A DNA stretch of 63,432 nt, the filler included, from an uncultured bacterium (GTDB lineage Bacteria > CAYJRR01), in assembly GCA_964372275.1 (NCBI GenBank). It is 4 parts of 4 records of this genome, joined end to end, with 100 filler letters (N's around TTAATTAATTAA, not from the genome) between each part and the next. Parts side by side here need not be neighbours in the genome. Positions count along the whole stretch, not along the records: positions 1 to 15,989 come from CAYJRR010000104.1; 3 more parts are not named here. One strand, 5' to 3'. Of this stretch, positions 1 to 49,378 are shown piece by piece. The position numbers were made by a program, and so were the translations under genes. Position 1 is the stretch's first letter. Each line of letters starts with the position of its first letter. The notes under the pieces were generated by a model. The model saw only the letters and a program-made list of their open reading frames with translations, did no database searches and was not told the DNA's origin.

Positions 1-1028
<1,028 letters not shown>

Positions 1029-1063
1029 GACCGACCCCCGACACTCCGCCAAAGGGCCCTCCC

Positions 1064-2170
<1,107 letters not shown>

Positions 2171-2172
2171 GC

Positions 2173-3678
2173 ATGCCGGAGCCGCTCCCGCCGCACTTGG
2201 CGAAGTTCCGCGAAGAGATCAAGGAGCTGGCGAAGTCCTACGGACTCGACTTCTTCGAGACGATCTTCCAGATCCTCGACTACGACGAAGTGAACATGGT
2301 CGCCGCCTACGGCGGGTTCCCCACCCGCTACCCGCACTGGCGCTTCGGGATGGAGTACGAGTCGCTCTCCAAGGGCTACCAGTACGGCCTGCAGAAGATC
2401 TACGAGATGGTGATCAACACCAACCCCTCGTACGCCTACCTGATGAAGGGGAACACCGACACCGACCAGAAGCTGGTCATGGCCCACGTCTACGGCCACG
2501 TCGACTTCTTCAAGAACAACGTCTACTTCGCCCACACCAACCGCAAGATGATCGACGAGATGGCGAACCACGCCACGCGCATCCGGCGCTACGTCGATCG
2601 ACTGGGGATCGAGCCGGTCGAGAACTTCATCGACGCGTGTCTTTCGATCGAGAACCTGATCGACCGCCACCTGCCGGCGATCAAGCGCCGCAAGGACCGG
2701 AAAGCGGGGATCGCGCCGGTGGAGGAGGAGATCCCCGTCCCGCAGAAGATCCGGGCGAAGTCCTACATGGACCCCTTCATCAACCCGAAGGAGTTCCTGG
2801 AACAGCAGCAGAAGAAGATCGACGCCGAGCGTGGCAAGGCCCGGCGCTTTCCCGAGGAGCCCGAGCGCGACGTGATGCTCTTCCTCCTCGAGAACGCGCC
2901 GCTGGAACCGTGGGAGCAGGACATCCTGGAGATCATCCGCGACGAGGCCTACTACTTCGCGCCGCAGGGCATGACCAAGGTCATGAACGAAGGGTGGGCC
3001 TCGTTCTGGCACTCGACGTTGATGACACGGCACATCCTCACGCCGGGGGAGGTGATCGACTACGCCGACCACCACTCGGGAACGCTCGCCACCTCGCCGG
3101 GGCGGCTCAACCCCTACAAGCTGGGGATCGAGCTGTTCCGCGACATCGAGGACCGCTGGAACAAGGGGAAGTTCGGCAAGGAGTACGAGGAGTGCCGCGA
3201 CCTGGCGGAGATCAAGGCCTGGGATCGGAAGCTGGGGAAAGGCCGGGAGAAGATCTTCGAGGTGCGGCGGCTACACAACGACGTCACCTTCATCGACGAG
3301 TTCCTCACCCCCGAGTTCGCGATCGAGCAGAAGCTGTTCACCTTCGACTACAACAAGAACACCAACAGCTACGAGATCCGCGACCGCGCCTTCCAGAAGG
3401 TGAAGGACCGGCTGCTCTTCATGCTGACCAACCACGGCCAGCCGCCGATCCTGGTCGCCGACGGGAACTTCGAGAACCGGGGCGAGCTGCTGCTGCTGCA
3501 TCGGTACGAGGGGATCGGGCTGGAGCCCGACTACGCCAAGGACACCCTCAAGAACGTCCACGCCATCTGGCGCCGCCCGGTCAACCTCGACACCACCGTG
3601 GACGGGAAGCGGATGCTCCTCACCTACGACGGGAAGGAGCACAAGGAGAAGGAGCTGGCCCAGATGCAGCTCCTGTAG
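2173..3678 (+). CDS. spoVR: SpoVR/YcgB family protein
   Basis: [57 protein letters not shown] at 2173 lies just after the yeaH stop. Confidence 0.93.
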
Positions 3679-4339: not shown

Positions 4340-5071
4340 GTGCGCGTGCCCCCCGCCCTTTCGATCGTCTTCCCGGCGTTCAACGAGGCGCGGCGGCTTC
4401 CGGACAGCCTGGAGAGGACGTTCGCCTGGCTGGAGTCGCGCCGGTCCGGGCTGCAGGCGGAGGTGCTGGTGGTCGACGACGGTTCCACCGACGGCACCGC
4501 CGACCGGGTGCGGGCGCGCTTCGGCTCGCGCCCCGAGCTTCGGCTCCTTTCCTACGGCGGGAACCGCGGCAAGGGGTTCGCCGTCCGCCACGGGATCCTC
4601 GCCGCGAGCGGCGAGCGGGTGCTGATGACCGACGCCGACCTCTCCACGCCGATCGAGGAGCTGGAGCGCCTCGAGCAGACGATGGAGGAGGAGGGGCTCG
4701 ACATCGCGATCGGCTCCCGGGCGCTCGGCGAGGTGGTGGTTGCCCAACGCGGCGTGCGGAGCTTCGCAGGCAAGATCTACAACCGGATCATGCGGGCGAT
4801 CCTGCTCCTCCCGTTCCACGACACCCAGTGCGGTTTCAAGCTGCTGCGGCGCGAGCGGTGCCTTCCCGTCGTCCGGTCGGTGCGCATCGACCGCGTCAGC
4901 GTCGACGTCGAGCTCCTGTTCCTGGCCCGGCGCTCCGGGCTTCGCGCGGCGGAGATTCCGGTGCGCTGGTACAACAGCCCGGAGTCGAAAGTGAGTTTCG
5001 TCCGCGACGCGTCGCGGATGTTCTTCGACGTGCTTCGGATCCGGTGGTGGTCGATGACCGGCGGCTACTGA
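4340..5071 (+). CDS. Glycosyltransferase family 2, polyprenol-phosphate glucosyltransferase-like
   Basis: LSIVFPAFNE, VVDDGSTDGT, NRGKGFAVRHG, MTDADLS, DTQCGFK. Confidence 0.9.
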   Translation: MRVPPALSIVFPAFNEARRLPDSLERTFAWLESRRSGLQAEVLVVDDGSTDGTADRVRARFGSRPELRLLSYGGNRGKGFAVRHGILAASGERVLMTDADLSTPIEELERLEQTMEEEGLDIAIGSRALGEVVVAQRGVRSFAGKIYNRIMRAILLLPFHDTQCGFKLLRRERCLPVVRSVRIDRVSVDVELLFLARRSGLRAAEIPVRWYNSPESKVSFVRDASRMFFDVLRIRWWSMTGGY

Positions 5072-6069
5072 ACGACGCCGATCAGCCGCTTCTTGCGGAG
5101 CACGATCAGGATCTTCACCACGTCGAGGTCGTAGAGCGGCGTCCGGTCGAGGACCTCGCCCACCGAGGAGTAACGGACGATCGACCGCAACACGGCCTGC
5201 ACCGCCGGCGGGAGCTGCTTCAACAGGGTGGCGTCGGCGGTGAGCAGGCGAAGCCGCACGCGCCGCGGCGGGACCTCGGATCCGATCTGCTCCAGCTCGT
5301 CGATCTGCCGGAACCCCTCGATCAGCATGTTCTCGAGGCTCATCTGCACCCGCCGCTCGAACCGGTCGACGTCGACCGGCTCGGGTCGGAATTCGAAGTC
5401 GGCGTCGCGCCAGGCGAGCAGGCGGAAGATCGCCTTCTCGTTCTCCACCGGTCCGATCACCGCGTAGACGGCGCGACCCTCGACGCAGTAGATCCGGCCG
5501 ACCAGGTCGTCCCGCTCGAGCTCGAGGATCCCGGTGGAACGGTTGGCCGACATCATCTGCAACAACTCGGGGAGCGCCATCAGCGACAGGTTCCCCTGGA
5601 ACGATCTCTTCTTCGAGGCGGCCGGCGGAGGCGGAACCGCGCGATCGCGGAAGGCGTCGGACAGCGCGTAGATCGCGGAGAGGTCGGCCGCCGGATCGTC
5701 GCTGAAATAGACCTTCATCAGCGTCTGGCCGATCTGGACCTTGTCGCCGCTCTTCAGGTTCTGGCTGGTGACCTTGCGGCCGTTGACGAAGGTGCCGTTC
5801 GTCGAACCGAGGTCCTGGATCGATACCTCCTCCTCGACCCAGGCGATCTTGGCGTGCCTCCGGCTGACCAGGTGCTCGTCGATGAAGATGTCGGTCGACT
5901 GAGACCGCCCGGCGAACAGGATCTGGCCGGGACGCATGCGGAACTTCCGCCCGATGGCGCTTCCGGTGATGACGAAGATGTTCACTTCGCGCCCGACCGG
6001 CTCGCGCTTCGGCTCCGCCACGGGCAGGAGGTCCGACAGGCTGCCGACGAACGTCTTTTCTTCGGCCAT
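5065..6069 (-). CDS. FHA domain + DUF4388 (PatA-N-like) signalling protein
   Basis: FHA motifs GRS, VSRRHA, DLGSTNGTFVNG, then FQGNLSLMALPELLQM..TGILEL..GRIY typical of DUF4388. Confidence 0.85.
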   Translation of the reverse strand: MAEEKTFVGSLSDLLPVAEPKREPVGREVNIFVITGSAIGRKFRMRPGQILFAGRSQSTDIFIDEHLVSRRHAKIAWVEEEVSIQDLGSTNGTFVNGRKVTSQNLKSGDKVQIGQTLMKVYFSDDPAADLSAIYALSDAFRDRAVPPPPAASKKRSFQGNLSLMALPELLQMMSANRSTGILELERDDLVGRIYCVEGRAVYAVIGPVENEKAIFRLLAWRDADFEFRPEPVDVDRFERRVQMSLENMLIEGFRQIDELEQIGSEVPPRRVRLRLLTADATLLKQLPPAVQAVLRSIVRYSSVGEVLDRTPLYDLDVVKILIVLRKKRLIGVVQ

Positions 6070-6185
6070 CGTCCTCGCGCTACGCGCTCACGCGGCGGAA
6101 GGGCTCGCGCAATCGCGCGGCATTCCCGCGTCCTACCTTCGCGGTCAGTCTACCCGCGCGCGAGCCGCCGAAGCAAGGCGCCGGC

Positions 6186-6410
6186 CTACGCCGGATCGAC
6201 GGCCTTCGCGCCACGCGACCGCGTCGCCTTCGTCTTCGCGCGGGGCGCGGAGACGGACAGCTGCGACTCGGCCTCGAGCCAGTGCGTCAGTTCCTGCCCG
6301 AACGGCCGGCCGCGCTCGCACCAGATCTCGTACGCCCGCTTCGCCACCATTTCGTGCGACACCGCGGCGGGCGCCGGCGCTCGTGTCGATCTCCCCGTGT
6401 TCCGCTCCAT
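6186..6410 (-). CDS. DUF2934 small protein
   Basis: HEMVAKRAYEIWCERGRPFGQELTHWLEAE; ATG at 6410 preceded by a GAAGGAAG ribosome-binding site. Confidence 0.8.
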   Translation of the reverse strand: MERNTGRSTRAPAPAAVSHEMVAKRAYEIWCERGRPFGQELTHWLEAESQLSVSAPRAKTKATRSRGAKAVDPA

Positions 6411-6539
6411 CGCTTCCTTCTCCTGTTCGTACCCGAAGATGAAGGGGCTCCATTCAATCCGACTCGACTGCGGGGGCAAATGAATTCTTTGCGTCAAACC
6501 CTTGCGCCCGAGCCGCGCCTCATGGGATGAACCCCATCG

Positions 6540-7277
6540 GTGCGACCGATCGTCCTGGTCATGACCGAAGGACCGCGTCGATTCGCCCGCCGCAAGCTGC
6601 GGGACACGCGCGGCTCGGTCGATGCCGCCACCGCCCTCCTTGCGCACGCGCTGGAGGTCGCCGCGACCGCCGGGGAGGTGGTCGTCTGCGCCCCGGCGGG
6701 CGCCGGCGATGGTCTCGAGACGGCGGCCGTCCGCTGGCTCGCACAGGGTTCCGGATCGCTCGCCGCCCGGCTGTGTCGCGCGCTCCAGGAGTTGCACGCC
6801 GAAGAGGCCGCCGCCGGGCGCGACCGGCCGATCGTGGTGCTCGGCGACGATTGCCCCGGCCTCGACGAGGAGGTTCTCGACGACGCCGTGCGCCACCTGA
6901 CCGCGGGAGAGCCGTCGGTGCTCGGCCGGGCGCGCGACGGTGGCTTCTGGCTTTTGGGACTCTCGCGCTGGAACGGCGATCTCGCGGCATCGCTCGCGGC
7001 GAACGTCGCCTGGTCCGGCCCGCGCGCGTTCGAAACGGCGCAGGCGCTGCTGCGGCGGACGTTCGAGCGGAAGCCGGCGATCGTGGCCGAGCTCGACGAC
7101 CTCGACGCGATCGAAGATGTGGCCGGCGCGGTCCGGGCCGCGACCCGCCCGACGTTGAAGCGGGCCCTGGCGGCGGTGCGGCCCGGGCTCCCCCCCGCCG
7201 AATCCGACGATCCGCTCCCGCCGCCCGCCGTCGGGCTGCCTGCCGGACGCCTGCCGCGGCCGCCGCCGCGTCGCTAG
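6540..7277 (+). CDS. DUF2064 (TIGR04282-like, CofC-like) putative glycosyl/nucleotidyltransferase
   Basis: VVLGDDCPGL, VLGRARDGGFWLLGL, VAWSG, LDDLDAIED correspond to the family motifs GxDxP, GPxxDGGY, WS and DVD. Confidence 0.75.
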   Translation: MRPIVLVMTEGPRRFARRKLRDTRGSVDAATALLAHALEVAATAGEVVVCAPAGAGDGLETAAVRWLAQGSGSLAARLCRALQELHAEEAAAGRDRPIVVLGDDCPGLDEEVLDDAVRHLTAGEPSVLGRARDGGFWLLGLSRWNGDLAASLAANVAWSGPRAFETAQALLRRTFERKPAIVAELDDLDAIEDVAGAVRAATRPTLKRALAAVRPGLPPAESDDPLPPPAVGLPAGRLPRPPPRR

Positions 7278-7356
7278 GCCCCCGCGATCGACGCTTTCCC
7301 TACACGCGGCCCGGCGCACGCATGGCCGCAGAACCGGCCGTTTCGAAGGAGTCCCC

Positions 7357-9831
7357 ATGTCGCTCACGCCGCAGACGATCCTCCACACGCCTTCGCTGAC
7401 CCACTGGCACTCGAGCGACGGGCTCCACTTCGCCATCGACGCCGACGGCCCGAACTGGATCGCGACCGACGGCCGCGGGGCGAAGATTCTGACGGCGATC
7501 GACGGCCGGACGACGCTGGCGCAGCTGGTCGCCGCGTGTCGCGGAGATCTCGATCCGGCGAAGGCGTGGCTGCACGTCCACTCGTTCGTGCAGTCGCTGG
7601 TGCGCGCCGGGATCGCACGCACCACGCCCTTCGCGCGTCCCCCGTACGCCGGTCGCGCCGCCCACCTCGCGGCCGGCCGCCTTCGCGAGTTCTGGATCCA
7701 CACCAACAACTCCTGCAACCTGACCTGCGAGCACTGCCTCGTCTCCTCGGGGCCCGACGGCGATCGGGGACTCGCGACCGAAACACTCTTCAAGGCGATC
7801 GACCAGGCGGCGAAACTCGGCGTGGAGCGCTTCTACTTCACCGGTGGCGAGCCGTTCCTGCGAAAGGACGTCTACGAGCTGATCGCGCGGGTGACCGGGA
7901 CCCACGACCGGGAGCTCGTGATCCTGACCAACGCCACCCTGTTCGAGAGCGAGACGCACAAGAACGCCCTGTCGAAGCTCACGCGCGAGAAGGTCCGCTT
8001 CCAGGTTTCGATCGACGGAACCAACGCCGCCGACAACGACCCGATCCGCGGCAAGGGGAGCTTCGAGAAGGCCTCGCGCGGATTGCAGCGTCTCTCCGCG
8101 CTCGGCTTCGAGACGTCGCTCACCGCCGTCCCGTGCCGGGGGAACCTCCGGGAGCTGCCGAAGCTGCCGTCGCTGGCGAAGGCGCTCGGGGCTTCGAGCG
8201 TGCACCTGATGTGGCCGCACCGCCGCGGCCGCGCCCTGCAGATGCTCGAGGAGCTGCCGTCGGTGGACGAGCTTCTCGCCGTGGCGCGCGAGGTGCGGGC
8301 GGCGGCCGCGGAGGCCGGGGTGCGGCTCGACAACGTCGAGAGCCTGAACGGACGCGTCAACGCCGTCCCCGGCGTGAAGCACGATCTCGGGATGGCCGGT
8401 GTCGAATCGCTCTGCCTCTACTCCGACGGCGTCCTCTATCCCTCGGCGGCGACGGCCGACCACAAGGAGCTGGCGATCGGAATCCTCGACGGCAAGAAGC
8501 TCGAGGAGGTCTGGAAGGCGTCGCCGGTGGCGGCGGCGCTTCGCGAGGCGTCGATCGCCCGGAAGCCGTCGGCCTGGGACGATCCGCTCCGTTTCATCCT
8601 CGGCGGCGGCGACGTGGAGCATGCCTACTTCTGGGGGGGGAGCTTCCTGTCGGCCGATCCCTACGAGAGGCTCTACCGGGAGCTCGCCAAGGACGCGATG
8701 CACGAGATGGCGGCCCGCGGCCGGGATCGGCTCAACCGCCGCGCCGGCTACGACGCGCCGGTGATCTTCCACGCCATGGGGGACGGCGCGCTGGCCTGCG
8801 GCGACGAGGCGCCCGGGGCGGTGCGCACCCTCCACTCCAACTGCGTTCTCGCCTTCGACGTCGACCGGCCACGCGCGCTGGTGCGCGAGTTCTACGGCGC
8901 CGCCGCCGAGAAACCGAAGGCGGAGCTGTGCTGCCCGGTCCGTCCGTCGGAGGACGATCTGCGGCACATCCCCAAGGACGTCGTCGACCGGTTCTACGGG
9001 TGCGGAAGCCCGGTGCAGGACGCCTCGATCGCTTTGGGGGAGACGACGCTCGACCTGGGAAGCGGCGCCGGGATCGACGTCTTCATCTCCGCCAAGTACG
9101 TGGGCAAGGAGGGGAAGGCGATCGGCGTCGACATGACCGACGCCATGCTGGGCGTGGCGCGGGAGAACAAGCCGATCGTCGCCCGGAACCTGGGCTACGA
9201 CGTGGTCGATTTCCACAAAGGGTTCCTGGAGAAGGTGCCGGTCGCCGACCGGACGGTCGACGTCGTCACCAGCAACTGCGTGGTGAACCTCTCCCCCGAC
9301 AAGCGCGCCGTCTTCGGCGAGATCTGGCGGGTCCTGAAGGACCACGGCCGCCTGGTCCTGGCCGACATCGTCGTCGACCGCGCCGTCCCGCCGCACCTGC
9401 GGGTGAATCCGCAACTGTGGGGGGAGTGCCTGACCGGGGCGCTGACCGAGGACGAGCTGATGGCGGAGCTCGAGCGCGCCGGCTTCTACGGACTCGAGAT
9501 CCTGAAGAAGAGTTTCTGGCAGAAGGTCGAGGGATACGTCTTCTCCTCGGTCACGGTGCGCGCCTTCAAGTTCGAGAAGAAGACCGGCTGCGTCTATCTC
9601 GGCCACCGCGCCGTCTACCAGGGGCCCTACAAGAGCGTCTCCGACGAGGAGGGGCACCTCTTCCCGCGCTACGAGGAGGTCGAGGTCTGCACCGACACCG
9701 CGGCGAAGCTGACCCACGCGCCGTACTCGGCGACCTTCACGGTTCTGGGTCCCGACGGACAGGTGGTGGCCGCCGTCGACGCCTCCCGCTTCACCAGCGA
9801 AGTTGGCGCCTGCGGACCGGGGTGTTGCTGA
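7357..9831 (+). CDS. Fusion protein: PqqD-like domain, radical SAM, degenerate SPASM, ArsM/AS3MT-like arsenite methyltransferase
   Basis: AAGGAG RBS; CNLTCEHC, FTGGEP, LTNA, VSIDG (radical SAM); CCP, FYGCG, LDLGSGAGID, SNCVVNLSPDK, WGECLTGA and terminal CC (ArsM). Confidence 0.85.
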   Translation: MSLTPQTILHTPSLTHWHSSDGLHFAIDADGPNWIATDGRGAKILTAIDGRTTLAQLVAACRGDLDPAKAWLHVHSFVQSLVRAGIARTTPFARPPYAGRAAHLAAGRLREFWIHTNNSCNLTCEHCLVSSGPDGDRGLATETLFKAIDQAAKLGVERFYFTGGEPFLRKDVYELIARVTGTHDRELVILTNATLFESETHKNALSKLTREKVRFQVSIDGTNAADNDPIRGKGSFEKASRGLQRLSALGFETSLTAVPCRGNLRELPKLPSLAKALGASSVHLMWPHRRGRALQMLEELPSVDELLAVAREVRAAAAEAGVRLDNVESLNGRVNAVPGVKHDLGMAGVESLCLYSDGVLYPSAATADHKELAIGILDGKKLEEVWKASPVAAALREASIARKPSAWDDPLRFILGGGDVEHAYFWGGSFLSADPYERLYRELAKDAMHEMAARGRDRLNRRAGYDAPVIFHAMGDGALACGDEAPGAVRTLHSNCVLAFDVDRPRALVREFYGAAAEKPKAELCCPVRPSEDDLRHIPKDVVDRFYGCGSPVQDASIALGETTLDLGSGAGIDVFISAKYVGKEGKAIGVDMTDAMLGVARENKPIVARNLGYDVVDFHKGFLEKVPVADRTVDVVTSNCVVNLSPDKRAVFGEIWRVLKDHGRLVLADIVVDRAVPPHLRVNPQLWGECLTGALTEDELMAELERAGFYGLEILKKSFWQKVEGYVFSSVTVRAFKFEKKTGCVYLGHRAVYQGPYKSVSDEEGHLFPRYEEVEVCTDTAAKLTHAPYSATFTVLGPDGQVVAAVDASRFTSEVGACGPGCC

Positions 9832-9839
9832 GGAACGGC

Positions 9840-9900
9840 CGGGAGCGGGTTCGGGTTCGGCAGCAGAAGCGGATGCGGGAACGGGAACGGATACGGGAGG
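9840..9900. repeat. Degenerate hexamer tandem repeat (CGGNNN)~10
   Basis: cgggag cgggtt cgggtt cggcag cagaag cggatg cgggaa cgggaa cggata cgggag, read directly from the sequence. Confidence 0.7.
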
Positions 9901-9904
9901 TCGG

Positions 9905-11074
9905 ATGGCGGTGATCTTCGTCCTTGCCGCGGCGCTCTTGGTCGCCTACGCGAACGGCGCGAACGATAACTTCAAAGGGGTCGCGACGCTTTTCGGCAGC
10001 GGGACGACCGACTACCGTCGGGCGCTTCGCTGGGGGACGGCGACGACCTTTGCCGGCGGTGTCACGGCGCTGGTCGCCTCCGCCGGACTGGTGAAGGCGT
10101 TCAGCGGGGCCGGGCTGGTTCCGAACGCGCTCGTCGGCGCGCCGTCGTTCGTGGCCTCGGTGGCGCTTGGCGCGTCGCTCACCGTCCTGGCGGCGACGCT
10201 CCTCTCCCTCCCGATCTCGACGACGCACGCCCTGACCGGCGCGCTCGTCGGAGCGGGCCTGGTGCTGGGAGGAGAGGTTCACTTCGCGGTGCTGGGCAAG
10301 AAGTTCTTCCTTCCCCTCGCCGTCTCGCCGTTCCTCGCCCTGTCGATTACCGCCCTGCTCTACCCGGCGCTCCGGCGACTGCGTCTCGCGCTGGGAATCG
10401 CCCGCGAGTCGTGCGTCTGCGTCGAGGGGCGATGGGTGCCGCTGTCGACGGTGGGCGGCGCTTCGGCGGCGGCGACGGTTGCCGAGCCGAGCCGAGCCGG
10501 CGGCGCGCACGCCGCGGCGAACGCTTCGCTCGGCCTCCAAGGAGGCGCGGTCCCCCTCCCCGTCCTCACCACCTGTCAGCAGCGCTACTCCGGCGCCGTG
10601 CTCGCCGTCGACGCGCAACAGGCGATCACCGTGGCCCACTACGCCAGCGCCGGCGCCGTCTCCTTCGCCCGGGGATTGAACGACACGCCCAAGATCGCCG
10701 CCCTGCTGCTCGCCGCGCAGGCGGTCGGCCTTCGCCACGGCATGCTCCTCGTCGCGATTGCGATGGCCGCCGGGGCGATCCTCCAGGCTCGCCGCGTCGC
10801 CCAGACCATGAGCCAGAAGATTACCGAGATGAACGCGGGCCAGGGATTCACCGCCAACCTGGTGACGGCCCTGCTCGTGATCGTCGCCTCGCGGTTTGGT
10901 CTTCCGGTCTCCACGACGCACGTCTCGTGCGGGTCGCTCTTCGGCCTCGGCGCGGTGACCGGCACCGGCCGCTGGGGGACCGTCACCGGGATCGTCCTCG
11001 CCTGGCTCGTGACGTTGCCCGCCGCCGCCGCGCTCGCCGCCGCCACCGCGGCGATCGTGCGCGCCGCAGCCTGA
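9905..11074 (+). CDS. PiT (PHO4) family inorganic phosphate/anion transporter
   Basis: NGANDNFKG, LPISTTHALTG, ARGLNDTPK, LPVSTTH duplicated signatures; multiple hydrophobic segments; GGGAGG RBS. Confidence 0.9.
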   Translation: MAVIFVLAAALLVAYANGANDNFKGVATLFGSGTTDYRRALRWGTATTFAGGVTALVASAGLVKAFSGAGLVPNALVGAPSFVASVALGASLTVLAATLLSLPISTTHALTGALVGAGLVLGGEVHFAVLGKKFFLPLAVSPFLALSITALLYPALRRLRLALGIARESCVCVEGRWVPLSTVGGASAAATVAEPSRAGGAHAAANASLGLQGGAVPLPVLTTCQQRYSGAVLAVDAQQAITVAHYASAGAVSFARGLNDTPKIAALLLAAQAVGLRHGMLLVAIAMAAGAILQARRVAQTMSQKITEMNAGQGFTANLVTALLVIVASRFGLPVSTTHVSCGSLFGLGAVTGTGRWGTVTGIVLAWLVTLPAAAALAAATAAIVRAAA

Positions 11075-11167
11075 CCGGCCGATTCGACCTCTTCGCACCG
11101 CGCATCGAGCGACGGCGGCTCCGACCTTCGACGCGGCGTTGCGCGGCGCGTGGTAGATTGCGCGGCG

Positions 11168-13047
11168 GTGACTCGGGTCCGCCGCTCGTTCCTCGCCGGT
11201 CTGCTGCTCGCCGTGCTCGCCGGTTGCGATCGCGACGCGCCGTGGTACGGGACGACGACGCCCAAACACGGACCCGGGGAGCTCTGGCTCAACAACCTCT
11301 CCGAGCCGGAGTGGATCGACCCGGGGAAGTGCTCGGACGCCGCGGGCGGGACGGTGATCAGCAACCTGTTCGAAGGGCTGACCGCGGCCGATCCGCGGAC
11401 GCTCGGACCGACGCCCGGGATGGCCGAGCGCTGGGAGATCTCCCCCGACAAGCGCGTCTACACCTTCCACCTGCGCGCCGGCGCCGCCTGGTCGGACGGC
11501 GTCCCGGTGACGGCGCACGACTTCGTCTACTCGTGGGCGCGGGTGCTCGATCCCGCGACGCTCGCGAAGTACGCCGACCAGCTGTACGAGATCCGGAACG
11601 GCGAGGCGGTGCACCAGAAGGCGCTGCACGTCGTCGGTCTCCCGCCCGACGAGAAGGCGGTGCGCGCCGCCTTCGAGCGCTTCGGCCCGGTCGAGCGCGT
11701 CAAGCTCGAGCCCGAACCGGCCTTCGGCGGCGGCGCCTTCGTCTGGATGGGCGAAGGGGCCAAGCCGGCCGAGGAGATCCTCGCCGCACTTGCCGGCCGC
11801 GGCACGACGGAGTCCGGTGGCGCCGCGACCGCCCCGTCCGGCGTGCGGGTGAAGGTCGCCGGTCCGGAGGTCCTCGGCCTCAAGGCGCTCGACGAGCGGA
11901 CGTTCCAAGTGACGCTGGAGTTCCCGGTCCCCTACTTCCTGCCCAAGATCACGACCCTCTACACCATGAGCCCGGTGCCGCGGCACGTGATCGAGCGGTT
12001 GAAGGCTTCCGGAAAGAACCCCGACCTCTGGACACGGCTGGAGAACATCGTCTCCAACGGACCGTTCGTCCTGAGCGAGTGGAAGTTCCGGCAGCAGATG
12101 TCGTTCGAGCCGAACCCCCACTATTGGGACCGCGCGGCGGTGCGCCTCGAACGGGTGAAGGCGTTGATGATCGAGTCCTACACCACCACGCTCCAGATGT
12201 ACAAGGCGGGGGAGCTCGACTACATCGGCGAGAACGTCAACATCCCCTCCGAGTATTCGGCCTTCATGCGGACCAAGCGCGACTACCGGTTCGCGGGGTA
12301 CACCACCACCTACTGGTACTGGTTCAACACCGGCGCCCCCGGCGTCTCCGACGTGCGGGTGCGGCGGGCGCTGAACATGGCGACCGACAAACAGGCGATC
12401 GTCGACCACGTCACGCGCCAGAACCAGCTCCCGGCGACCTCGTACATCCAGGACGGCCTCAACGGCTATCGCAAGATTGCGGGGCAAGGACACGACCCCG
12501 ACGGGGCGCGGCGGCTGCTCGCGGAGGCGGGCTTTCCCGGCGGCAAGGGGCTGCCACCGATCACCATCGCCTACAACTCGAGCGAGACGCACAAGGCGAT
12601 CGCCGAGGCGATCCAGGAGATGTGGCGCAAGGAGCTGGGGGCCGACGTCAAGATCGAGAACAGCGAGTGGCAGGTCTTCCTCAAGAGGCTGCAGATGGGG
12701 GACTACCAGGTCGGGCGCCTCGGTTGGACCGCCGACTACCCCGATCCGTTCACCTTCCTCTCGGTCTTCCTCTCCACCAGCGGGAACAACCACGCCAAGT
12801 GGAAGAACCCCCGCTTCGATGCCATGGTCGCCGACGCGAACATGAAAGCCGATCCGGCGGAACGGATGGCGGGCTTGGCCGCCGCGGAGCGGCTGCTCCT
12901 CGACGAAATGCCGGCGATGCCGATCTACTTCTACACGCGGGCCTACCTCATCAAGCCCTACGTAAAGGGGCTCTACTCCAACTTCGCCGACCGACACCCC
13001 TGGAAGGCGATCTGGATCGATCCCGACGCGGTCGCCAGAGGTGACCT
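11168..13047 (+). CDS. oppA: Oligopeptide ABC transporter substrate-binding lipoprotein with RRM-like insertion; 3' end in assembly gap
   Basis: Lipobox LAGC; LFEGL, YTFHLR..WSDGVPVTAHDF, VSNGPF, DVRVRRAL, GWTADYPDP. Confidence 0.88.
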
Positions 13048-13057
13048 NNNNNNNNNN
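13048..13057. other. Scaffold gap (10 N) hiding the oppA end and oppB start
   Basis: Run of N in the sequence. Confidence 0.95.
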
Positions 13058-15989: not shown

Positions 15990-16089
15990 NNNNNNNNNNN
16001 NNNNNNNNNNNNNNNNNNNNNNNNNNNNNNNNNTTAATTAATTAANNNNNNNNNNNNNNNNNNNNNNNNNNNNNNNNNNNNNNNNNNNN
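15990..16089. other. Artificial contig linker
   Basis: N run, TTAATTAATTAA (stops in all six frames), N run; 100 nt. Confidence 0.97.
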
Positions 16090-19000
16090 ACTGCGTCCCC
16101 ACGAAGTCCGCCGGAGGCGTGTAGGTGAGAGTGGGCGCCGTCCCCGAAAGCGAACCGCCGACCGTCCCGGAGAGGTCGAAGACGTAGGCCGCACCGGCCT
16201 GATCCGCCAAGTTCTCGTCCGGATCACCTCCGTCGATTCCCGTTGCCGACGAGTCCTCGGAAAAGGCGCCCGCTATCACGGTAGTGCCGGATACGGAGAC
16301 CGCGTTCATGCGGTCGGAGGCGTCGGGATTCGTCGCTTTCAGATAGGCCAACGGGGTCCAAACCCCTCCGACGCGGCGATAGACGTACGCCGCCCCGCTC
16401 ATCGACGCGGAGTCGTCCGACGGATTCCCGCCGACGCCACTGGCGCCCGAATCCTCCCCCAACGCGCCAACGACCAGCGTGTCGCCGTTCACCGCAACCG
16501 TCTCACCGAAACGGTCCTGCACGGTGAGGCCCGATGGTTTCAGATAGGCCCTCTGCGTCCAGGCAGAGCCCACGCGTTCGAAGACGTGTGCCGCGCCCGC
16601 GTCATCCACGGTCGAATCGTCGTAGCTGTTCCCGACGACGATGACGCTCCCGGAGATCGCCACGGAGTAGGCGAAGAAATCTCCCGGGTTGGAATTGAGG
16701 ATCGTCTGGAGACTCCACGTCGTGCCGGTCCGCTTGAAGACTCGGCACCACCCGCGACCGGCGACGATGGTGTCCCCCGAGATCCCGACGACTGCGCCGA
16801 GATCGCCGTACGTCACCGGCGCGGAATCCTTGAGGTAGGCCTGTTGGGTCCAGACGCTCCCGTTCCGAACGAAGACGTAGAGCGCTCCGGCGTTGTCCTT
16901 GGAGTTGTCCGCCTGGTTTCCGGGAATCCCCGAAGCCTCACCGCCGGCGCCGACCACGACCGTGTCACCTGAGATGGCGACACTCGTGCCGAACTCGTCC
17001 CACGCCTCCGCGTTCGACGCCTTGAGATAAGCCTGCTGCCGCCAGGCCCCACCGCTGCGCACGAAGACCCACGCCGCACCCGCGCGAGTCGCCGACATGT
17101 CGGTCGGGTCTCCGTTGATCCCGGTCGAGGCCGAGTCCTCCTCGTAGCCTCCGACGACGATCGTGTCCCCGTCGATCGCGACGCTCACGCCGAACACGGC
17201 GTGGGGCTGGACATGGTTCGGCTTGAGGTACGCCTGCTGCCGCCATACGCCGCCCCGCCGCACGAACACGTAGGCGGCGCCGGCGCTCATCGCGGACCGG
17301 TCCGACTGGTCTCCATCGACACCCGGGCTGCCCGACCACTCGTAGAGAGCTCCGACCACCAGCGTATCGCCCGAGACGGCGACGGCGTTTCCGAAACCGT
17401 CGGGACTGCTCGTGTTCGATGCCTTGAGTGTGGTGATCGAGCCCGTCGGTGATGCCTCGAATTCGAAGGTGACCGCTCCGCCGTCGGGATCGCTCCCGAC
17501 GAGCACGATCGGCACCGGCGACTCTTCGGCCGTCGTGATGCGCTGCGGAACCGCCTTCGGCGCGTCGTTCACCGGCTGGACGGTGATCGAAACGGTAGAG
17601 GGTGCCGAGACCCCTCCCGTACCGTCCGATACGCGGAAGGAAAACGTGTCGACTCCGGCGAAGTCCCGAACCGGCACATAGGTGAGGTTGGGTGCCGTCC
17701 CGATCAGCGCGCCCTTCGCAGGGAGGACGCCGACGTACGCGGCGCCGCTGTCCGCCGCCGAATCGTCGGCCCCGTTTCCGTCGATGCCGCTCGCGTTCGA
17801 ATCCTCCTGGTGGGCGCCGACCGCCCACGTATTCCCGTCGATGGCGACCGCCTCCCCGAACCGATCGGGCACTCCGGGGTTCGGGGCCTGGAGGATCTCC
17901 TGCTCGGACCAGACCGATCCGTTTCGCACGAAGCGGTAGACAGCGCCGTACTCCAGCGCCGTCGGGATCTCGTTGCTTGCGTCGGTCTGGTCCCGGGCAG
18001 GAGATCCCACGAATAGGACGTCGCCCGAGACGCTGACGCTGTGACCGAACCCGTCGAAGTTGGTGCCGTCCGAGGCGGCGAGGCTCTGCTGGAGAGTCCA
18101 GACCCCTTCCGAATCCCGAACGTAGACGTACGCGGCGCCACGGTCGGGCCCCCCGGGATTCTCGGCGTGGGACCCGACGACGACCGTGTCGCGCGAGATC
18201 GAGACGCTCGCACCGAACTGGCTGTCGTCCCGGTCCGACGCGACCGGAGACTTGAGATAGGCCTGCGGACTCCATGTCGATCCGCTCCTCGTGAAAACAT
18301 ACGCCGCGCCGCTATCGGGATGTCCTTCGTCGCTGGTGTTGTAGTTGCCCGCTTCGTGAGGACTCACCGCCGGGTGAAGGACGACGCCGATCGCTGCCGC
18401 GTCCTCGCGCCATGCGCCGACGACGATCGTGTCGCCGTCGATGGCGACGCTGTTACCGAATTCGTCGCCGTACGCCGTCGGGTCGGATCCGGAGCCGTCG
18501 CGATTGAACGCCTTGAGGTAGGCCTGCTGCGTCCACGTCGTGCCGTTCCTCACGAAAACGTACGCGGCACCGCTATTGAATAGAACGTTCCCAGGCTCGC
18601 TGGCCTGGTTGCCGTTCACCAGGCGGGAGCCGGAGTCCTCCTGCAGCGCCCCGACGACGACCGTGTCCCCCGAGATGGCGACGCTCGCACCGAAGAAGTC
18701 GTTGGCGTCCGGGTTGGACGCCTTCAAGTAGGCCTGCTGACTCCAGGTCGTGCCGCTTCGCACGAAGACGTAGGCGGCGCCCGCCTGCTGCTTCGATTCG
18801 TCCGCCTGGTTGCCGCCGATGCCGGCCGACGCCGAATCCTCCTCGGCCGCGCCGACGACGATGGTATCCCCCGAGATGGCGACGCGCTTGCCGAAGCCGT
18901 CCCAATCGTCGCCGTTGGAGGCCTTCAAGTAGGCCTGCTGCGCCCAGACGCCGCCGCTTCTCACGAATACGTAGGCGGCGCCGCTGTTCTGCCGGCTGTT

Positions 19001-22000
19001 GTCCGCCGGATCGCCGTTGACGCCAACCGCTCCCGAATCCTCGCCCGGCGCGCCGACGACCATCGTGTCGCCCGAGACCGCGACGCTGCGGCCAAGCTCG
19101 TCGCCGGGATCGGTGTTCGGGGCCTTCGCGTAGGCCTTTCCACCGACCGGTGACAACAGTTCGAACGTCACCGGCGAGCCCTCGGGATCGTTGCCGGTCA
19201 GCACGATCGAGATCGGCGTCTCTTCCGTGGCCGTCACCGCCTGCGCGTCGGCCACGGGGTCGTCGTCTACCGGCGTGATGGTCAACGACACCGTCACCGT
19301 CGCGGACTCCGCCGCGGACGGATCGATCGCTTTGTAGGTGAACGAGTCGGTTCCGCTGAACTCCGCCGCCGGCGTGTAGACGAATGCGCCGTCGGCCTGC
19401 AGGACCAGCGACCCGTTCGCCGTTCCGGAGACCAGATTTGCCGTCAGCGAATCGCCGTCGACGTCGGAATCGTTTCCCAGCACCCCGGGCGCCGCCACGG
19501 AGAGCGGGACGTCCTCGGCCGTGGTGTAGCCGTCGTCGGTCGCCACCGGCGTGTCGTTCACCGGCGTCACCGTGATGCTGAAGCTTTGCGCGGCGCTGAC
19601 GTCGATGCCGCCGCCGGTCGTTCCCCCGTCGTCCTGCAATCGCACGGTGACGGTCGTGAGTCCGTTGGCATTCGCCGCCGGTGTGAAGGTCAACGTCCCG
19701 TCGGCGGCCAGAGCGGGCCCCGACGAGAAAAGCGCGCCGTTCGTCACGTCGAGCAGGAAGGTGAGCGCCTGGGACGATTCGTTCGCCGGACCGCGGGAGA
19801 TTGCGGTCGCCCAGCCGGACAGTGTCGCCGCCCCCGAGTCTTCCGCCACCTCGGGGTTCCCTCCCTTCACGAACGACGGAGCGTCGTTGACGGCGACGAC
19901 CGTGAGGGAGAAGGTCTGGGGCGCACTCAGATCGATACCGCCGTTCGCCGTGCCGCCGCTGTCCTGGACGCGGACGGTGACGACCGCCGTCCCGGCCGCG
20001 TTCGTCGCCGGCGTGAACGTGAGATTCCCGGTGGCGATGGCGATGGCCGGCTGGACGGAGAAGAGCGCGTTGTTGTCGTTGGTGACGGTGTACGCGACGA
20101 CCGTCTGCGATGCCTCGTCGGCGGGTCCTTCCCACGACGCGGGACTGTTCGGATTGTTGGTGTTGCTCGGACTCGCCCAGGCGACGACGGTCTGCGCCGA
20201 CGTGTCCTCCAGCACGGTCTGATCGGCCCCTTTGGCGAAGGTCGGCGCATCGTTCACCGCCGTCACCACGACGGTGAACGTCTGCGCGGCGCTGGTGTCG
20301 ACACCTCCATCCGAGGTCCCGCCGTCGTCATGAATGCGTACGGTCACCGTGGACGTGCCGTTGCCGTTCGGCGCCGGAGTGAACGTCAGTGTCCCGTCTG
20401 CCGCGACGGCCGGGCCGGCGGAAAAGAGGGTGGGATTGCTCGCACTCACCAGGAAGTCGACCGCTTGGCTCGACTCGAAGGATCCGGCGCTGATCGCGTT
20501 CGCCCAGCCGGCGTAGCTCGCCGGCCCGCTGTCCTCGAGGACGGTCTTGTTGCCGCCTTTCGTGAAGCTGGGGACGTCGTTCACCGGCGTCACGGTGACG
20601 GTGAAGGTCTGGGGGTCGCTGGTGTCGACGCCGCCGTTCGCCGTCCCGCCGCTGTCCCGGACCTGCGCCGTGACCGTCGCCGTTCCGAACCGGTTCGCCG
20701 CCGGCGTGAAGGTCAGGTTTCCGGTGCTGGTACCGACGGACGGATTGCTCGAGAAGAGCGCGGTAAAGCTGTTGCCCAGCACATAGGCGCTCACCGTCTG
20801 TGAGGCTTCGTTCGTCGGTCCTTCCCAGTCGACCGGGCTGTTCGGGGCGTTGGTGTTGCTGGGAGAGGCCCAGCTCGTCGCCGTCCGTAGGCCGCTGTCC
20901 TCCAGGACCGTCTGGTCCGCGCCCTTCGTAAACGTCGGCTTGTCGTTGACCGCGGTGATCGTGACGGGGAAGGTCTGGGGGTCGGAAAGGTCGACGCCGC
21001 CGTTGCCCGTCCCACCGTCGTCGCGCACTTGCACCGTCACGGTCGCGACGCCGTTCTGGTCCGGCGCCGGTCGGAAGGTCAGCGTGCCCGCCGCGGAGAC
21101 CGCCGGCTGCGCCGAGAACAGGCCGCTGTTGTTGTTGGTCACGACGTAGCCCGACACCGTCTGGGTCGACTCGTCCGCCGGACCCTGCCACCCCGCCGGC
21201 GTGGTTGCCCAGCCGACGACCGTCACGTCCCCTGCGTCCTCGAACGCGGCCTGGTTCGCCCCCTTCGTGAACGTCGGCTTGTCGTTGACGGCCGTGATGG
21301 TGATCGAGATCGTGGCCGCTGCCGACTCGAGCCCTTCGTCGTCCGTCACGGTGAAGTTGAAGCTTGCCGGGCCGTTTGCGTTCGACGGAGGCGTGTAGGT
21401 GACGTTCGGCGGGGTTCCGGACACCTCGCCGACGGTCGGAAGGCTCGGCGTGGCATAGACGGCTCCGCTCGACGAGGATCCTTCACTCGCCTGGCTGCCG
21501 CCGATGCCGGTTGCACTCGAGTCCTCCTCGGGCGACCCGCTGACGATCGAGTTGTAGCCCCACAACGCGACACTGGTCCCGAAGCGGTCGAACGCCGTGT
21601 TGTTGGAAGCCTTGACGTACGCCTCCTGGGACCACGTCGTTCCGACCCGGGCGAAGACGTAGGCGGCGCCGCTCGACGTGGCGTCGTTGTTGGAACCGCT
21701 GCCGCCGACCCCCGTCGCATTCGAGTCCTCGTAGGGAGCGCCCACCGCGAGCCGGTTGCCCGAGATCCAGACGCTCGCCCCGAACCAATCGTTGTTCTCC
21801 GCGTTCGACGCGGTGAGGTAGGCCTGCTCGCTCCACGTCGATCCGTTCCGCGCGAAGACGTAGGCCGCTCCGCCGCTGGCCGACGCCGTTCCGTACGCCT
21901 GCTCGGAACCGACGGCGAGGTCGTCCCCGGAGAGGGAGAGTGCGCCTCCGAACCGGCCCTGCAGGGAGGGGTTGGACGCTTTCACGTAGGCCTGCTGCGA

Positions 22001-24706: not shown

Positions 24707-24972
24707 GAGCAAATCTCCTCCCGATGGCTCGCAACGACCGACGCACGGCGTCGACCGGAGATGCCTGCGGTTCCCACTCCCGCGGCACAACAAGATCGTA
24801 ACCCTTCGAAATCAATGCGGATATGTGCGCTTCAGACGCGATCCGCCGACAGACCTGTCACACCGGAACTGCGAAAAGTGCCTGGAATTCGCTGCGATCC
24901 GAATGCGCCACGATGGCGCGCAGATCACGGGCGCAGCACCACCGATTCCGTGGCTTGGCCGGATCGAAGCGG

Positions 24973-31908: not shown

Positions 31909-32008
31909 NNNNNNNNNNNNNNNNNNNNNNNNNNNNNNNNNNNNNNNNNNNNTTAATTAATTAANNNNNNNNNNNNNNNNNNNNNNNNNNNNNNNNNNNN
32001 NNNNNNNN
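31909..32008. other. Artificial contig linker
   Basis: Same N/TTAATTAATTAA/N structure. Confidence 0.97.
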
Positions 32009-47761: not shown

Positions 47762-47861
47762 NNNNNNNNNNNNNNNNNNNNNNNNNNNNNNNNNNNNNNN
47801 NNNNNTTAATTAATTAANNNNNNNNNNNNNNNNNNNNNNNNNNNNNNNNNNNNNNNNNNNN
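47762..47861. other. Artificial contig linker
   Basis: Same N/TTAATTAATTAA/N structure. Confidence 0.97.
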
Positions 47862-48504
47862 ACTCCTTGAGCGTCTCCCGGTCGACCTCGGCGATCGTGA
47901 TCTCCAGCATCACCTGCTGGACGCCGGCCACCTGGATCATGTTCACCACGTTGGCCGAGCGCCCGCGCTCGCCGCCCGCCGCGCCTGGCGGACCTTCGGC
48001 GTCGTCCCCGCGCGCCGCGCGCCGGCGGGGGGACGGACCTCTCCCTTCGTCGGCGGAGACCCCGGCGATGCTTTCGGCGATCGCCTGCGCCTGCTCCGAC
48101 TGGCGCGCGTCGTCGACCTCTCCCGACAGCACCGCCAGCTCCCCCGCCGCCGAGACGCGGATCGTGTTCTTGGGGAGCAGCTCGTCGATGCGCCGCTTGA
48201 TCAGCTCGATGTCGGGGGAGACGGAGACCGAATAGAAGCGGGTCTCGCCGTTGGTGAACCAGAGGATGAGGTTTGTCGATCCGATGCGGTTGCCGTTGAC
48301 CAACAGCTGCCGCGGCGACACCACCACCACGTTGGCGATCTCGGGGTTGGTGACGCTGGTGCGCTTGAGCTCCGCCGGCACGTCGAGGAGCACCGACTTG
48401 TCGCGGATCACCTCCAGCACCCGGGTCGCGTCCGGCCGAGGCTGGACCTCTCCCGCGGGCGGGGCGGCGAGGGTCGTCAGCAGCGCGAAGAGGGGGGCGA
48501 TCAC
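47862..48504 (-). CDS. cpaC: Tad pilus secretin RcpA/CpaC N-terminal part; 3' truncated
   Basis: VTNPEIANV..LVNG..GSTNLILW, BON-like segment, QQVMLEITIAEVDR. Confidence 0.85.
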
Positions 48505-49376
48505 CGAACGGTCGCGGTCGAGCTCTCCGTCGCCGCCGGCACCGGTTTCGTGAATTCGACCCGGGTCCGACGGTCGTTCTCGATCACGTCGACATTATCG
48601 ACCAACTTCGTCGGCTTTTTCACCTCGATCGGTGCCGCGGCGGCCGGAGCCCGCTCGAGCAGCTTCTGGGTATCGGTCCCCGGGGTCTCGACCGAGCCGA
48701 CATCGCCGTAGGCGCGCATCGTCAGGATCAGCTTCCCCTCCACCGTCGCCAGGCCGATCCGCTCGGCGTCCCCGGGCCGGACGAACAACGTCACGACGGA
48801 AGCGGGGGCGATCTTCATCCCCTCGGCAGTGAGGCTTTGGTCGACCGCCGCCACCTCCGCGTCCTGGAGGATCAGCTTCGACGACGGCGGCTCGCCGCGC
48901 TGCGACTTGAGCACCGCCACCACGTCGACCTTCGCCCCGGGGACGAGGAACCCGGCCACTCCGGAGACCTCGTCCACCTTCAACGTCATCGCCCGATAGC
49001 CTTCGGGGATGACCCCCTGGAGGCTGCCCGTCCCTCCGCGGGGCGCGAGCTTCGGCTCGAGCAGGGTCTCCCCCGCGAAGAGCCGCACCCGAGACATGCG
49101 CCCGACCGCCGTCTCTGTCTCCAGGACGGCGGTCGGGGGCACCGCTTCAGCGGGCAGCCTCAGCACCTGAATGTCGTCGGGCCCGATCCGGGTCAACGCC
49201 GGCAGATCCCGGGTCACGACGACGATCTCTTTCTTGGGTTTCGCGTCTTGGGCCTTGGCGACCACCTCCGACGCGACGCGTTCGCGGATCCAGACCCGCG
49301 CCCCCTTGGCGGCGGCGAGGCCTACCCCCAGGGCGACGAACAGCATCATCCATCCGCGATAGTTCGTCCGGTTCAT
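48501..49376 (-). CDS. cpaB: Flp pilus assembly protein CpaB/RcpC
   Basis: SAF domain; IPEGYRAMTLKVDEVSGVAGFLVPGAKVDV. Confidence 0.92.
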   Translation of the reverse strand: MNRTNYRGWMMLFVALGVGLAAAKGARVWIRERVASEVVAKAQDAKPKKEIVVVTRDLPALTRIGPDDIQVLRLPAEAVPPTAVLETETAVGRMSRVRLFAGETLLEPKLAPRGGTGSLQGVIPEGYRAMTLKVDEVSGVAGFLVPGAKVDVVAVLKSQRGEPPSSKLILQDAEVAAVDQSLTAEGMKIAPASVVTLFVRPGDAERIGLATVEGKLILTMRAYGDVGSVETPGTDTQKLLERAPAAAAPIEVKKPTKLVDNVDVIENDRRTRVEFTKPVPAATESSTATVR

Positions 49377-49378
49377 CG

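Follow-up and report, generated by a model that had tools for sequence, protein, structure and literature searches.

What does a bacterium make with an arsenite methyltransferase that is fused, in a single polypeptide, to a radical S-adenosylmethionine (SAM) domain? This question is raised by a three-gene unit at positions 6540-11074 of a 63,432-nucleotide stretch of DNA (filler included) from an uncultured bacterium, assembly GCA_964372275.1. The whole stretch, joined from four parts of that genome, is called the window here, and all coordinates are positions along it. The unit consists of three co-oriented open reading frames (ORFs) on the plus strand:

6540-7277, plus strand: DUF2064 protein, 245 amino acids (PF09837)
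7357-9831, plus strand: radical SAM-ArsM fusion, 824 amino acids (PF04055 and Methyltransf_31)
9803-11074, plus strand: PiT/PHO4-family anion transporter, 423 amino acids counted from the TTG (PF01384)

The original prediction had read this unit as an organoarsenical biosynthetic locus, and that reading was partly supported by our analysis. As judged from its domain content and gene company, the operon is probably an undescribed bacterial way to carbon-bound arsenic compounds. The three co-oriented genes were recovered by ORF calling and Pfam annotation, and the same arrangement was found to recur in dozens of distant genomes. The gaps between the genes are short, with 79 nt separating the DUF2064 gene from the fusion and at most 73 nt separating the fusion from the PiT gene, which may start at the TTG at 9803, at the ATG at 9905 or at a point in between.

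We characterized the anatomy of the fusion, which was found to carry an RRE-like domain, a radical SAM core, a SPASM-derived domain and a complete three-domain ArsM in that order, followed by a short tail:

7357-7650, plus strand: RRE/PqqD-like winged-helix domain (residues 1-98)
7687-8256, plus strand: radical SAM core (residues 111-300), with CxxxCxxC at 7714-7737 and a TGGEP SAM-binding motif
8257-8886, plus strand: SPASM-derived domain that lacks the auxiliary-cluster cysteines (residues 301-510)
8887-9780, plus strand: ArsM/AS3MT-type methyltransferase (residues 511-808), with SAM-binding, As(III)-binding and C-terminal domains
9796-9828, plus strand: flexible Cys-rich C-terminal tail (residues 814-824), ending in CGPGCC

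Pfam placed Radical_SAM (PF04055) on residues 117-257 (73.6 bits) and Methyltransf_31 on residues 561-709 (98.8 bits). A weak PqqD match was noted at residues 26-86 (E 0.0023, below the cut-off), and some relatives, such as P0136, pass the PqqD model. The CxxxCxxC motif was found exactly where it had been predicted, as C120-x3-C124-x2-C127. A full-length AlphaFold model was confident as one body (mean predicted local distance difference test score, pLDDT, 89.1; predicted template-modelling score, pTM, 0.88), and only the last eleven residues of the chain, 814-824 with the CGPGCC tail, were disordered in it (pLDDT below 50).

The ArsM half is, on the evidence of its sequence, complete, with all three domains present. 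When all solved structures were searched with a 12-relative profile, residues 503-808 were aligned with whole ArsM chains (5evj, E 6.9e-56; 4fr0, E 4.9e-55; 4kw7, approximately 5e-55), and in the 5evj and 4kw7 alignment the YGCG, SNC and GEC motifs of the fusion fell on the matching ArsM motifs. The ArsM-type cysteines of the fusion are C525 and C526 (LCCP), C549 (YGCG), C641 (SNCV) and C691 (GEC), together with those of the terminal ACGPGCC. Across 56 full-length relatives, C120, C124, C127, C496, C525, C526, C549, C641, C691 and C824 were all invariant, as were T162-G163-G164-E165 and the DxGxGxG motif of the SAM-binding Rossmann domain (D566-L567-G568-x-G570-x-G572), while C823 was kept in at least 90%. 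The joining of a radical SAM domain to a whole ArsM, as first proposed, is therefore borne out by Pfam domains, by alignment to entire ArsM chains and by invariant cysteines.

Stand-alone ArsM/AS3MT enzymes such as CmArsM (4fr0) and CrArsM (5evj) have the same three domains and conserved cysteines, whereas in the fusion the ArsM occupies the C-terminal third of a longer chain and lies below the cut-off of NF008823 (225.9 bits against 263, over model positions 40-235 of 272). Stand-alone ArsMs from the neighbouring loci pass this model with 282-365 bits. Likewise, the ArsM half scored 158.5 bits with the AsSugarArsM model (cut-off 400) and 187.9 bits with the arsinothricin ArsM model (cut-off 500).

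The radical SAM half is, by its model scores, not an orthologue of ArsS, in agreement with the original prediction. It reached 68.6 bits with the ArsS model TIGR04167, for which the cut-off is 300, and matched only model positions 5-150 of 303, which correspond to the generic core; true ArsS genes score 315-459 bits. ArsS is thus homologous to this part of the fusion in the common core only, and the C-terminal Cys/Sec-rich domain belongs to the ArsS model, whereas the fusion has an RRE-like domain, a SPASM remnant that lacks clusters and an ArsM in the same chain.

We found that the N-terminal half resembles another group of enzymes. An AlphaFold model of residues 1-512, built from 56 aligned sequences (pLDDT 91.8, pTM 0.92), was matched by Foldseek to SkfB (E 7.7e-18), CteB (template-modelling score 0.70-0.73 over about 470 columns), SuiB, ChlB, TigE, anSME and PqqE, and CteB and PqqE match by sequence too, the CteB match beginning at residue 23. 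Residues 1-510 therefore have the fold and domain order of the RRE-rSAM-SPASM/twitch maturases (rSAM, radical SAM) of ribosomally synthesized and post-translationally modified peptides (RiPPs), including CteB, SkfB, SuiB, PqqE and anSME, but in the fusion the SPASM CX2CX5CX3C cysteines are replaced, no precursor peptide gene accompanies it and an ArsM is attached. The earlier label of a SPASM-class enzyme accordingly holds for the fold and fails for the cysteines, and Pfam SPASM (PF13186) found no match on the window fusion. The half was evidently recruited from RRE-rSAM-SPASM enzymes and not from ArsS, an ancestry that would make the fusion a non-orthologous replacement.

The loss of the clusters was traced through the closest paralogue found, a PqqD-rSAM-SPASM-TusA protein of Myxococcota (36% identity, E 4e-85, BLASTP). 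The CX2CX5CX3C motif of this paralogue and its two preceding cluster cysteines align to fusion sequence that is free of cysteines, and only C353, C481 and C496 are left as conserved cysteines in residues 301-510. At the former motif site, the fusion family carries D409-P410 ... G416-G417-x-D419-x-E421-H422 (GGGDxEH), and an invariant polar cluster occupies the former cluster site (D409/P410, G416-G417, D419, E421 and H422, with H283, W286, H288 and R292). In the 150 highest-ranking representatives, replacement of the SPASM motif by GGG[DE]x[DE]H went together with the ArsM cysteine motifs, with the caveat that the SNC pattern of that tally also matches an HSNC motif of the N-terminal half; canonical SPASM was mostly encountered in stand-alone proteins. 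The domain is thus derived from SPASM, most probably with both auxiliary clusters lost. The radical SAM half apparently remains catalytically intact, with a single predicted [4Fe-4S]/SAM site, because its CxxxCxxC and GGE motifs are invariant. The TusA-bearing relatives hint that this lineage may originally have handled a sulfur carrier. The TusA paralogue at L130:7730-9817 (plus strand) adjoins a second TusA-domain gene and a transglutaminase-like gene.

We then assessed the genes around fusion loci. The set comprised the 80 best-scoring loci and the window, giving 81; flanking ORFs were clustered, and representatives were annotated with Pfam and NCBIfam. DUF2064 and TIGR04283-like family-2 glycosyltransferases (GT2) were counted with separate models, since GT2-DUF2064 fusion proteins link both families. 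Five accessory families were recorded:

DUF2064 protein: 46 of 81 loci; within 3 kb and co-oriented in 46; a relative directly upstream of the fusion in 46
PiT transporter: 43 of 81 loci; within 3 kb and co-oriented in 41
VTT/DedA membrane protein: 26 of 81 loci; within 3 kb and co-oriented in 17
MerA-like FAD oxidoreductase: 21 of 81 loci; within 3 kb and co-oriented in 9; PRK06370.1-3 passed with 810-829 bits (two checked)
TIGR04283-like GT2: 17 of 81 loci, 13 of them strong; within 3 kb and co-oriented in 15

Homologues of the fusion thus do co-occur with DUF2064 and PiT genes, as the original prediction expected (46 and 41 of the 81 loci within 3 kb and co-oriented), and at least one of DUF2064, GT2 and PiT was present in 65 of them. 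The link to arsenosugars proved firmer than the sequence of the window could have suggested. The TIGR04283 cut-off was passed by an adjacent glycosyltransferase in 13 loci, among them the four of Myxococcota that are nearest to the window; the TIGR04282 cut-off was passed by the DUF2064 partner in 9; and a GT2-DUF2064 fusion protein adjoins the enzyme in 7. A methylthioadenosine (MTA) phosphorylase that passes TIGR01694 was noted near the fusion in L001, L002 and L061. Established arsenic genes (arsR, stand-alone arsM and acr3) lay within 10 kb in 6 of the 81 loci, all of Thermoanaerobaculia/Holophagales, with arsA in two, and the NCBIfam cut-offs were passed where checked. Thioredoxin, thioredoxin reductase and disulfide-reductase-like neighbours also occur. 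No conserved additional gene that could supply a substrate was found in the operon across these loci. Among 2374 small ORFs (25-89 amino acids) within 2.5 kb of the fusion, clustered over the 81 loci, no candidate precursor peptide was found; the recurrent ones lay antisense to PiT, and one that recurs in five Terriglobia-type loci overlaps the end of a convergent gene.

Two neighbourhoods deserve separate description. In an Elusimicrobia metagenome-assembled genome (MAG; L016), the operon comprises PiT, the fusion, GT2, DUF547, VTT and the oxidoreductase, and it is flanked by MerR, MerT-HMA and CopZ-like genes and two phage-type integrases (L016:5026-6628 and 17349-18931), which suggests that it lies in a mobile metal-resistance island. 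In Myxococcota relatives the VTT/DedA proteins are about 530 amino acids long (L002:6789-8378 and L004:6734-8341, plus strand), and that of L002 has an N-terminal CCG-type Cys-rich part and matches the 'dicluster-binding protein near Sec' model below its cut-off (105 bits).

The same accessory genes were encountered around ArsS. We fetched 8 kb on either side of 20 ArsS genes and searched these regions with models made from the fusion loci. DUF2064 was found in 5 of the 20 ArsS loci, TIGR04283-type GT2 in 4, VTT, the oxidoreductase, MTA phosphorylase and ArsM in 3 each, and PiT in 1. ArsS with ArsM in arsenosugar synthesis is, like the fusion, a radical SAM enzyme coupled to an ArsM methyltransferase, and the two kinds of locus have in common DUF2064/TIGR04282, TIGR04283 GT2, VTT/DedA, the MerA-like FAD oxidoreductase and MTA phosphorylase. 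This is a likeness of context and not of family membership, and PiT, which is frequent at fusion loci (43 of 81), is rare at ArsS loci (1 of 20).

In a sample of 301 Myxococcota genomes, ArsS scored above the cut-off in 50, and a close relative of the N-terminal half was found in 7 (one canonical fusion, five rSAM-ArsM-DUF5714 proteins and one TusA paralogue). TIGR04283 was recorded in 37, and ArsS was present in 25 of these 37 compared to 25 of the 264 others. In five fusion-bearing genomes from several phyla, ArsS was above the cut-off in none, the best TIGR04167 match being the fusion gene itself; one of these five is also among the six fusion-bearing Myxococcota genomes.

From these results, the fusion is on balance likely to be a bifunctional arsenic enzyme at the core of a conserved DUF2064-fusion-PiT module, and to stand as a non-orthologous, fused replacement of ArsS and ArsM in an arsenosugar-type pathway. 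The ArsM half, whose active site is fully conserved, would bind As(III) on its conserved cysteines and methylate it with SAM. The trivalent methylated arsenical would then move to the radical SAM domain, possibly carried by the Cys-rich tail. At the radical SAM site, a SAM-derived radical, most simply the 5'-deoxyadenosyl radical used by ArsS, would add to arsenic and form an As-C bond, and the context of the gene points to a product of the 5'-deoxy-5'-(di)methylarsinoyl-adenosine type. More speculatively, DUF2064, with the TIGR04283 glycosyltransferase and MTA phosphorylase of many relatives, may process the adenosyl or ribosyl arsenical further; a route through phosphorolysis to a ribose-1-phosphate analogue, nucleotide activation and then transfer would fit the folds and the gene company. 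The PiT protein may move an oxyanion, either by importing arsenate, or phosphate when arsenate causes stress, or by carrying an anionic product. Because the radical SAM half comes from another lineage and the window type of operon is without a TIGR04283 partner, the enzyme may yield another product than ArsS does.

ArsS is reported as adenosylating the trivalent dimethylated species DMAs(III) to 5'-deoxy-5'-dimethylarsinoyl-adenosine, DDMAA (PMC13598754). ArsL is reported as holding As(III) on a C-terminal tri-Cys motif, RCCLKC (bioRxiv 10.1101/2024.02.01.577332). The Cys-rich C-terminus of the fusion, CGPGCC, may by analogy hold As(III) as well. ArsL and ArsM in arsinothricin synthesis pair radical As-C bond formation with ArsM methylation, as is proposed for the fusion, but ArsL is a separate, noncanonical enzyme that transfers a 3-amino-3-carboxypropyl group, while the fusion is one chain, and the arsQ-type permease of arsinothricin clusters has no counterpart with the fusion. 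No ArsL model stood among the 25 of 79 NCBIfam matches listed.

Several observations weigh against this arsenosugar-type reading. We infer every step beyond the ArsM-like active site. The structural relatives of the N-terminal half are RiPP maturases that act on peptides, and it bears no specific similarity to ArsS or ArsL. The 80 loci were the top-scoring ones and include many related Thermoanaerobaculia, such that their counts are not independent events, and the ars genes near only six loci, all of one class, are not independent support. None of DUF2064, GT2 and PiT was found in 16 of the 81 loci, and none of the five accessory families in 11; some of these 11 are short-flanked, and five or six, of the Terriglobia/Versatilivorator type, have complete flanks of 10 kb. 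ArsS was absent from all six fusion-bearing Myxococcota genomes, which is not significant given a 17% background and approximately one expected co-occurrence. Among the 37 TIGR04283-positive genomes, the fusion was present in only 2, and 10 had neither the fusion nor ArsS.

Two of these points concern the window itself. Its operon is without a TIGR04283-type glycosyltransferase, and its DUF2064 protein, which had been predicted to be of the DUF2064/TIGR04282 kind, passes PF09837 (68 bits against a cut-off of 25.8, E 8.8e-19) but stays below the cut-off of TIGR04282, the 'arsenosugar biosynthesis glycosyltransferase' model (76.9 bits against 134). This protein also showed a weak match to MobA-like NTP_transf_3 (E 7.7e-4) and, as its second NCBIfam match, to CofC (E 0.0026), and its only solved sequence relative is 3cgx, a 'putative nucleotide-diphospho-sugar transferase' (E 0.01). 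It is best described, by these matches, as a divergent TIGR04282 relative with a MobA/CofC-like nucleotidyltransferase-type fold. The PiT protein matches PF01384 over its full length (200.1 bits, model positions 1-350 of 350) and passes none of the NCBIfam equivalogs, with 71.5 bits against 400 for CysP and 57 against 800 for PitA.

We sought to establish how widely the fusion is distributed. Of the 8000 candidates scored in a protein search, 1467 clusters reached E <=0.001, and nearly all of the best 120 clusters were 810-860 amino acids long with at least 54% identity. Their source names were generic, either 'methyltransferase domain-containing protein' or a radical SAM/methyltransferase label. 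Relatives of the fusion are encoded in at least 582 stretches of species-representative genomes, of which the best 80 were all from MAGs and represented at least 7 phyla, labelled Myxococcales/'Deltaproteobacteria', Thermoanaerobaculia, Holophagales, other Acidobacteriota, Gemmatimonadota, Elusimicrobiota, Omnitrophota, Nitrospirota and Nitrospinota. The nearest named relatives of the window fusion were in Myxococcota-type MAGs (63-69% identity). No curated family model covers the fusion, which is a member of a large, unnamed family. In the literature within reach, which excluded subscription journals and supplements, we found no description of a radical SAM-ArsM fusion, of DUF2064 with arsenic or of 'selenodomain-associated' transferases.

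The architectures within this family are varied. A profile of the N-terminal half retrieved 1105 representatives of 50%-identity clusters at E <=1e-30, and 40 of them, picked by length and hence non-random, were scanned with Pfam: a Methyltransf_31-type domain was found in 26, a C-terminal DUF5714 was added in 9 and a GT2 domain in 1, the reverse order of methyltransferase, radical SAM and SPASM was seen in 3, TusA in 2, and the remainder were stand-alone. Fusion of the radical SAM and methyltransferase domains has therefore occurred repeatedly and in several orders, which argues for coupled action. The reverse-order proteins (P0171, P0172 and P0185) are 681-711 amino acids long, and P0154 is a triple fusion of radical SAM, methyltransferase and GT2 with 948 amino acids. 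In five Myxococcota loci (L125-L129, e.g. L125:1776-4847, minus strand) the rSAM-ArsM-DUF5714 proteins span 1013-1096 amino acids and have no RRE domain; DUF2064 is directly downstream in 4 of the 5. In L003, DUF5714 is encoded by a gene of its own directly downstream of the fusion, and the protein shows a likeness, below the cut-off (143.5 bits), to the 'metal-binding double selenoprotein MbdU'.

With plain fusions, fusions with DUF5714 or a glycosyltransferase, reversed orders and forms with or without SPASM clusters all on record, a broader possibility was considered tentatively. The fusion might be the founding member of a large radical SAM-ArsM superfamily that performs radical As-C chemistry independently of ArsS and ArsL. 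Its former SPASM site might have been rebuilt as a polar pocket, possibly binding a metalloid or oxyanion, and its Cys tail might swing between the two active sites to shuttle arsenic. Taken jointly, these propositions are possible and we hold them with little confidence.

An arsenic module whose radical chemistry is unlike that of ArsS, using another carbon substrate or another SAM fragment and giving an undescribed class of organoarsenicals, is unlikely. Such a difference would suit the RRE-rSAM-SPASM lineage, unrelated to ArsS, as well as the new invariant polar cluster at the former SPASM cluster site and the divergent DUF2064 and PiT that the window type has in place of a TIGR04283 partner. 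The accessory genes, however, are common to ArsS loci, and the operon holds no conserved gene for supplying a different substrate.

It is distinctly unlikely that the enzyme is a plain detoxifying arsenite methyltransferase, with a radical SAM half that is vestigial or serves redox, electron supply or regulation, and with PiT aiding phosphate supply under arsenate stress. The position of the fusion next to arsR-arsM-acr3(-arsA) in six loci and the MerR/MerT island with integrases in L016 agree with detoxification. ArsM needs a thiol reductant, and the thioredoxin, thioredoxin reductase and disulfide-reductase-like neighbours would suit that need. That the enzyme only detoxifies by methylation while its radical SAM domain idles is nevertheless unlikely because the radical SAM motifs, which a vestige would not keep, are invariant across phyla, and because separate ArsM genes stand beside some fusions (6 of 81 loci), which argues that the fusion does more than methylate. 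In addition, glycosyltransferase-type partners have no role in simple methylation.

A substrate other than arsenic, be it Sb(III), Se, Te, persulfide sulfur or a further soft metalloid or chalcogen, we regarded as quite improbable for this architecture. In its favour, a link between DedA/VTT proteins and the uptake of selenite is on record, the closest paralogues outside the ArsM type carry TusA sulfur-carrier domains, and the DUF5714 protein resembles MbdU, albeit below the cut-off. Set against these features, the four-cysteine ArsM site is an As(III) signature, arsR, acr3 and arsA are neighbours in six loci, and the accessory genes are those of ArsS loci.

A RiPP-type maturase with a fused methyltransferase, whose RRE-like domain would bind a precursor to be cross-linked and methylated with no involvement of arsenic, is highly improbable: its best structural matches are indeed RRE-bearing RiPP maturases (SkfB, CteB, SuiB, ChlB and TigE) and PqqD matches weakly, but the SPASM auxiliary-cluster cysteines are lost, the small ORFs that recur near the gene in the 81 loci can be put down to antisense reading of PiT or of a convergent gene, a precursor gene would not fit into the operon gaps (79 nt and at most 73 nt), and the methyltransferase is specifically an ArsM with As(III) cysteines.

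The surroundings of the unit in the window were also examined. One further glycosyltransferase lies 1.4 kb upstream:

4340-5071, plus strand: family-2 glycosyltransferase (Glycos_transf_2, 87.8 bits)

It scored 38.8 bits with TIGR04283 against a cut-off of 182 and aligns at 32.5% identity (57 bits) with the glycosyltransferase portion of the GT2-DUF2064 fusion of L036. An FHA gene on the opposite strand stands between it and the operon, and its membership in the unit is doubtful. The interval from the FHA gene to the operon also holds a 73-amino-acid ORF at 6189-6410 (minus strand), MERNTGRS...RAYEIWCERGRPFGQELTHWLEAESQL..., which has no counterpart in the 80 related loci and carries a motif resembling that of the small DUF2934 family. 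A scan of 5900-11400 returned no promoter-like sites and 3 terminator-like sites compared to 2.2 expected, and the inverted repeats upstream of the operon are imperfect GC-rich palindromes with no clear meaning. The original prediction had noted that arsR, arsC and acr3/arsB are missing from the contig, and none of arsR, arsC, acr3 and arsB was found among the 32 window ORFs scanned with Pfam, a scan from which stretches such as 38.5-43.4 kb and 45.2-46.4 kb, and the N-masked runs, were left out.

The remaining surroundings are housekeeping and origin-proximal genes, including prkA/DUF444/spoVR, an opp-type ABC transporter, dnaA, rnpA, yidC and mnmE. The PrkA/DUF444/SpoVR triad stands at the start of the window (3-3678, plus strand). 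Two giant repeat proteins of 2919 and 2302 amino acids (16034-24793 and 24973-31881, both minus strand), with FG-GAP, Big_9 and cadherin-like domains, are flanked by N-masked runs. Tad/Flp pilus genes at 47806-50186 (minus strand) encode a pilus N-terminal/BON secretin-type protein, RcpC/CpaB and a prepilin peptidase. Runs of N at 13048-13057, 15990-16089, 31909-32008 and 47762-47861 (274 bases counted) interrupt genes; one of them splits SBP_bac_5, a gene downstream of PiT, and others adjoin a truncated dnaA.

The novelty of the fusion is that the known logic of organoarsenical synthesis, radical SAM enzyme with ArsM, appears to be built here from another radical SAM lineage and in one chain. 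To our knowledge, ArsS and ArsL are the only radical SAM enzymes known to make As-C bonds, and a third, independent and very widespread candidate would widen arsenic enzymology. The fusion allows a direct test of channelling between an SN2 methylation site and a radical site, and the accessory set shared with ArsS loci (DUF2064, TIGR04283 GT2, DedA/VTT, the MerA-like oxidoreductase and MTA phosphorylase) gives a lead on the late steps of the arsenosugar pathway. The phyla that carry the fusion dominate soils, aquifers and sediments, and surveys that count 'arsM' would score it as plain methylation and may misjudge the organoarsenicals produced. If the broader superfamily proposal were true, uncultured soil and groundwater Thermoanaerobaculia, Gemmatimonadota, Elusimicrobiota, Omnitrophota, Nitrospirota and Myxococcota would make an uncatalogued class of organoarsenicals, and PiT would serve as a dedicated arsenate intake, in a purposeful acquisition of arsenic rather than its detoxification.

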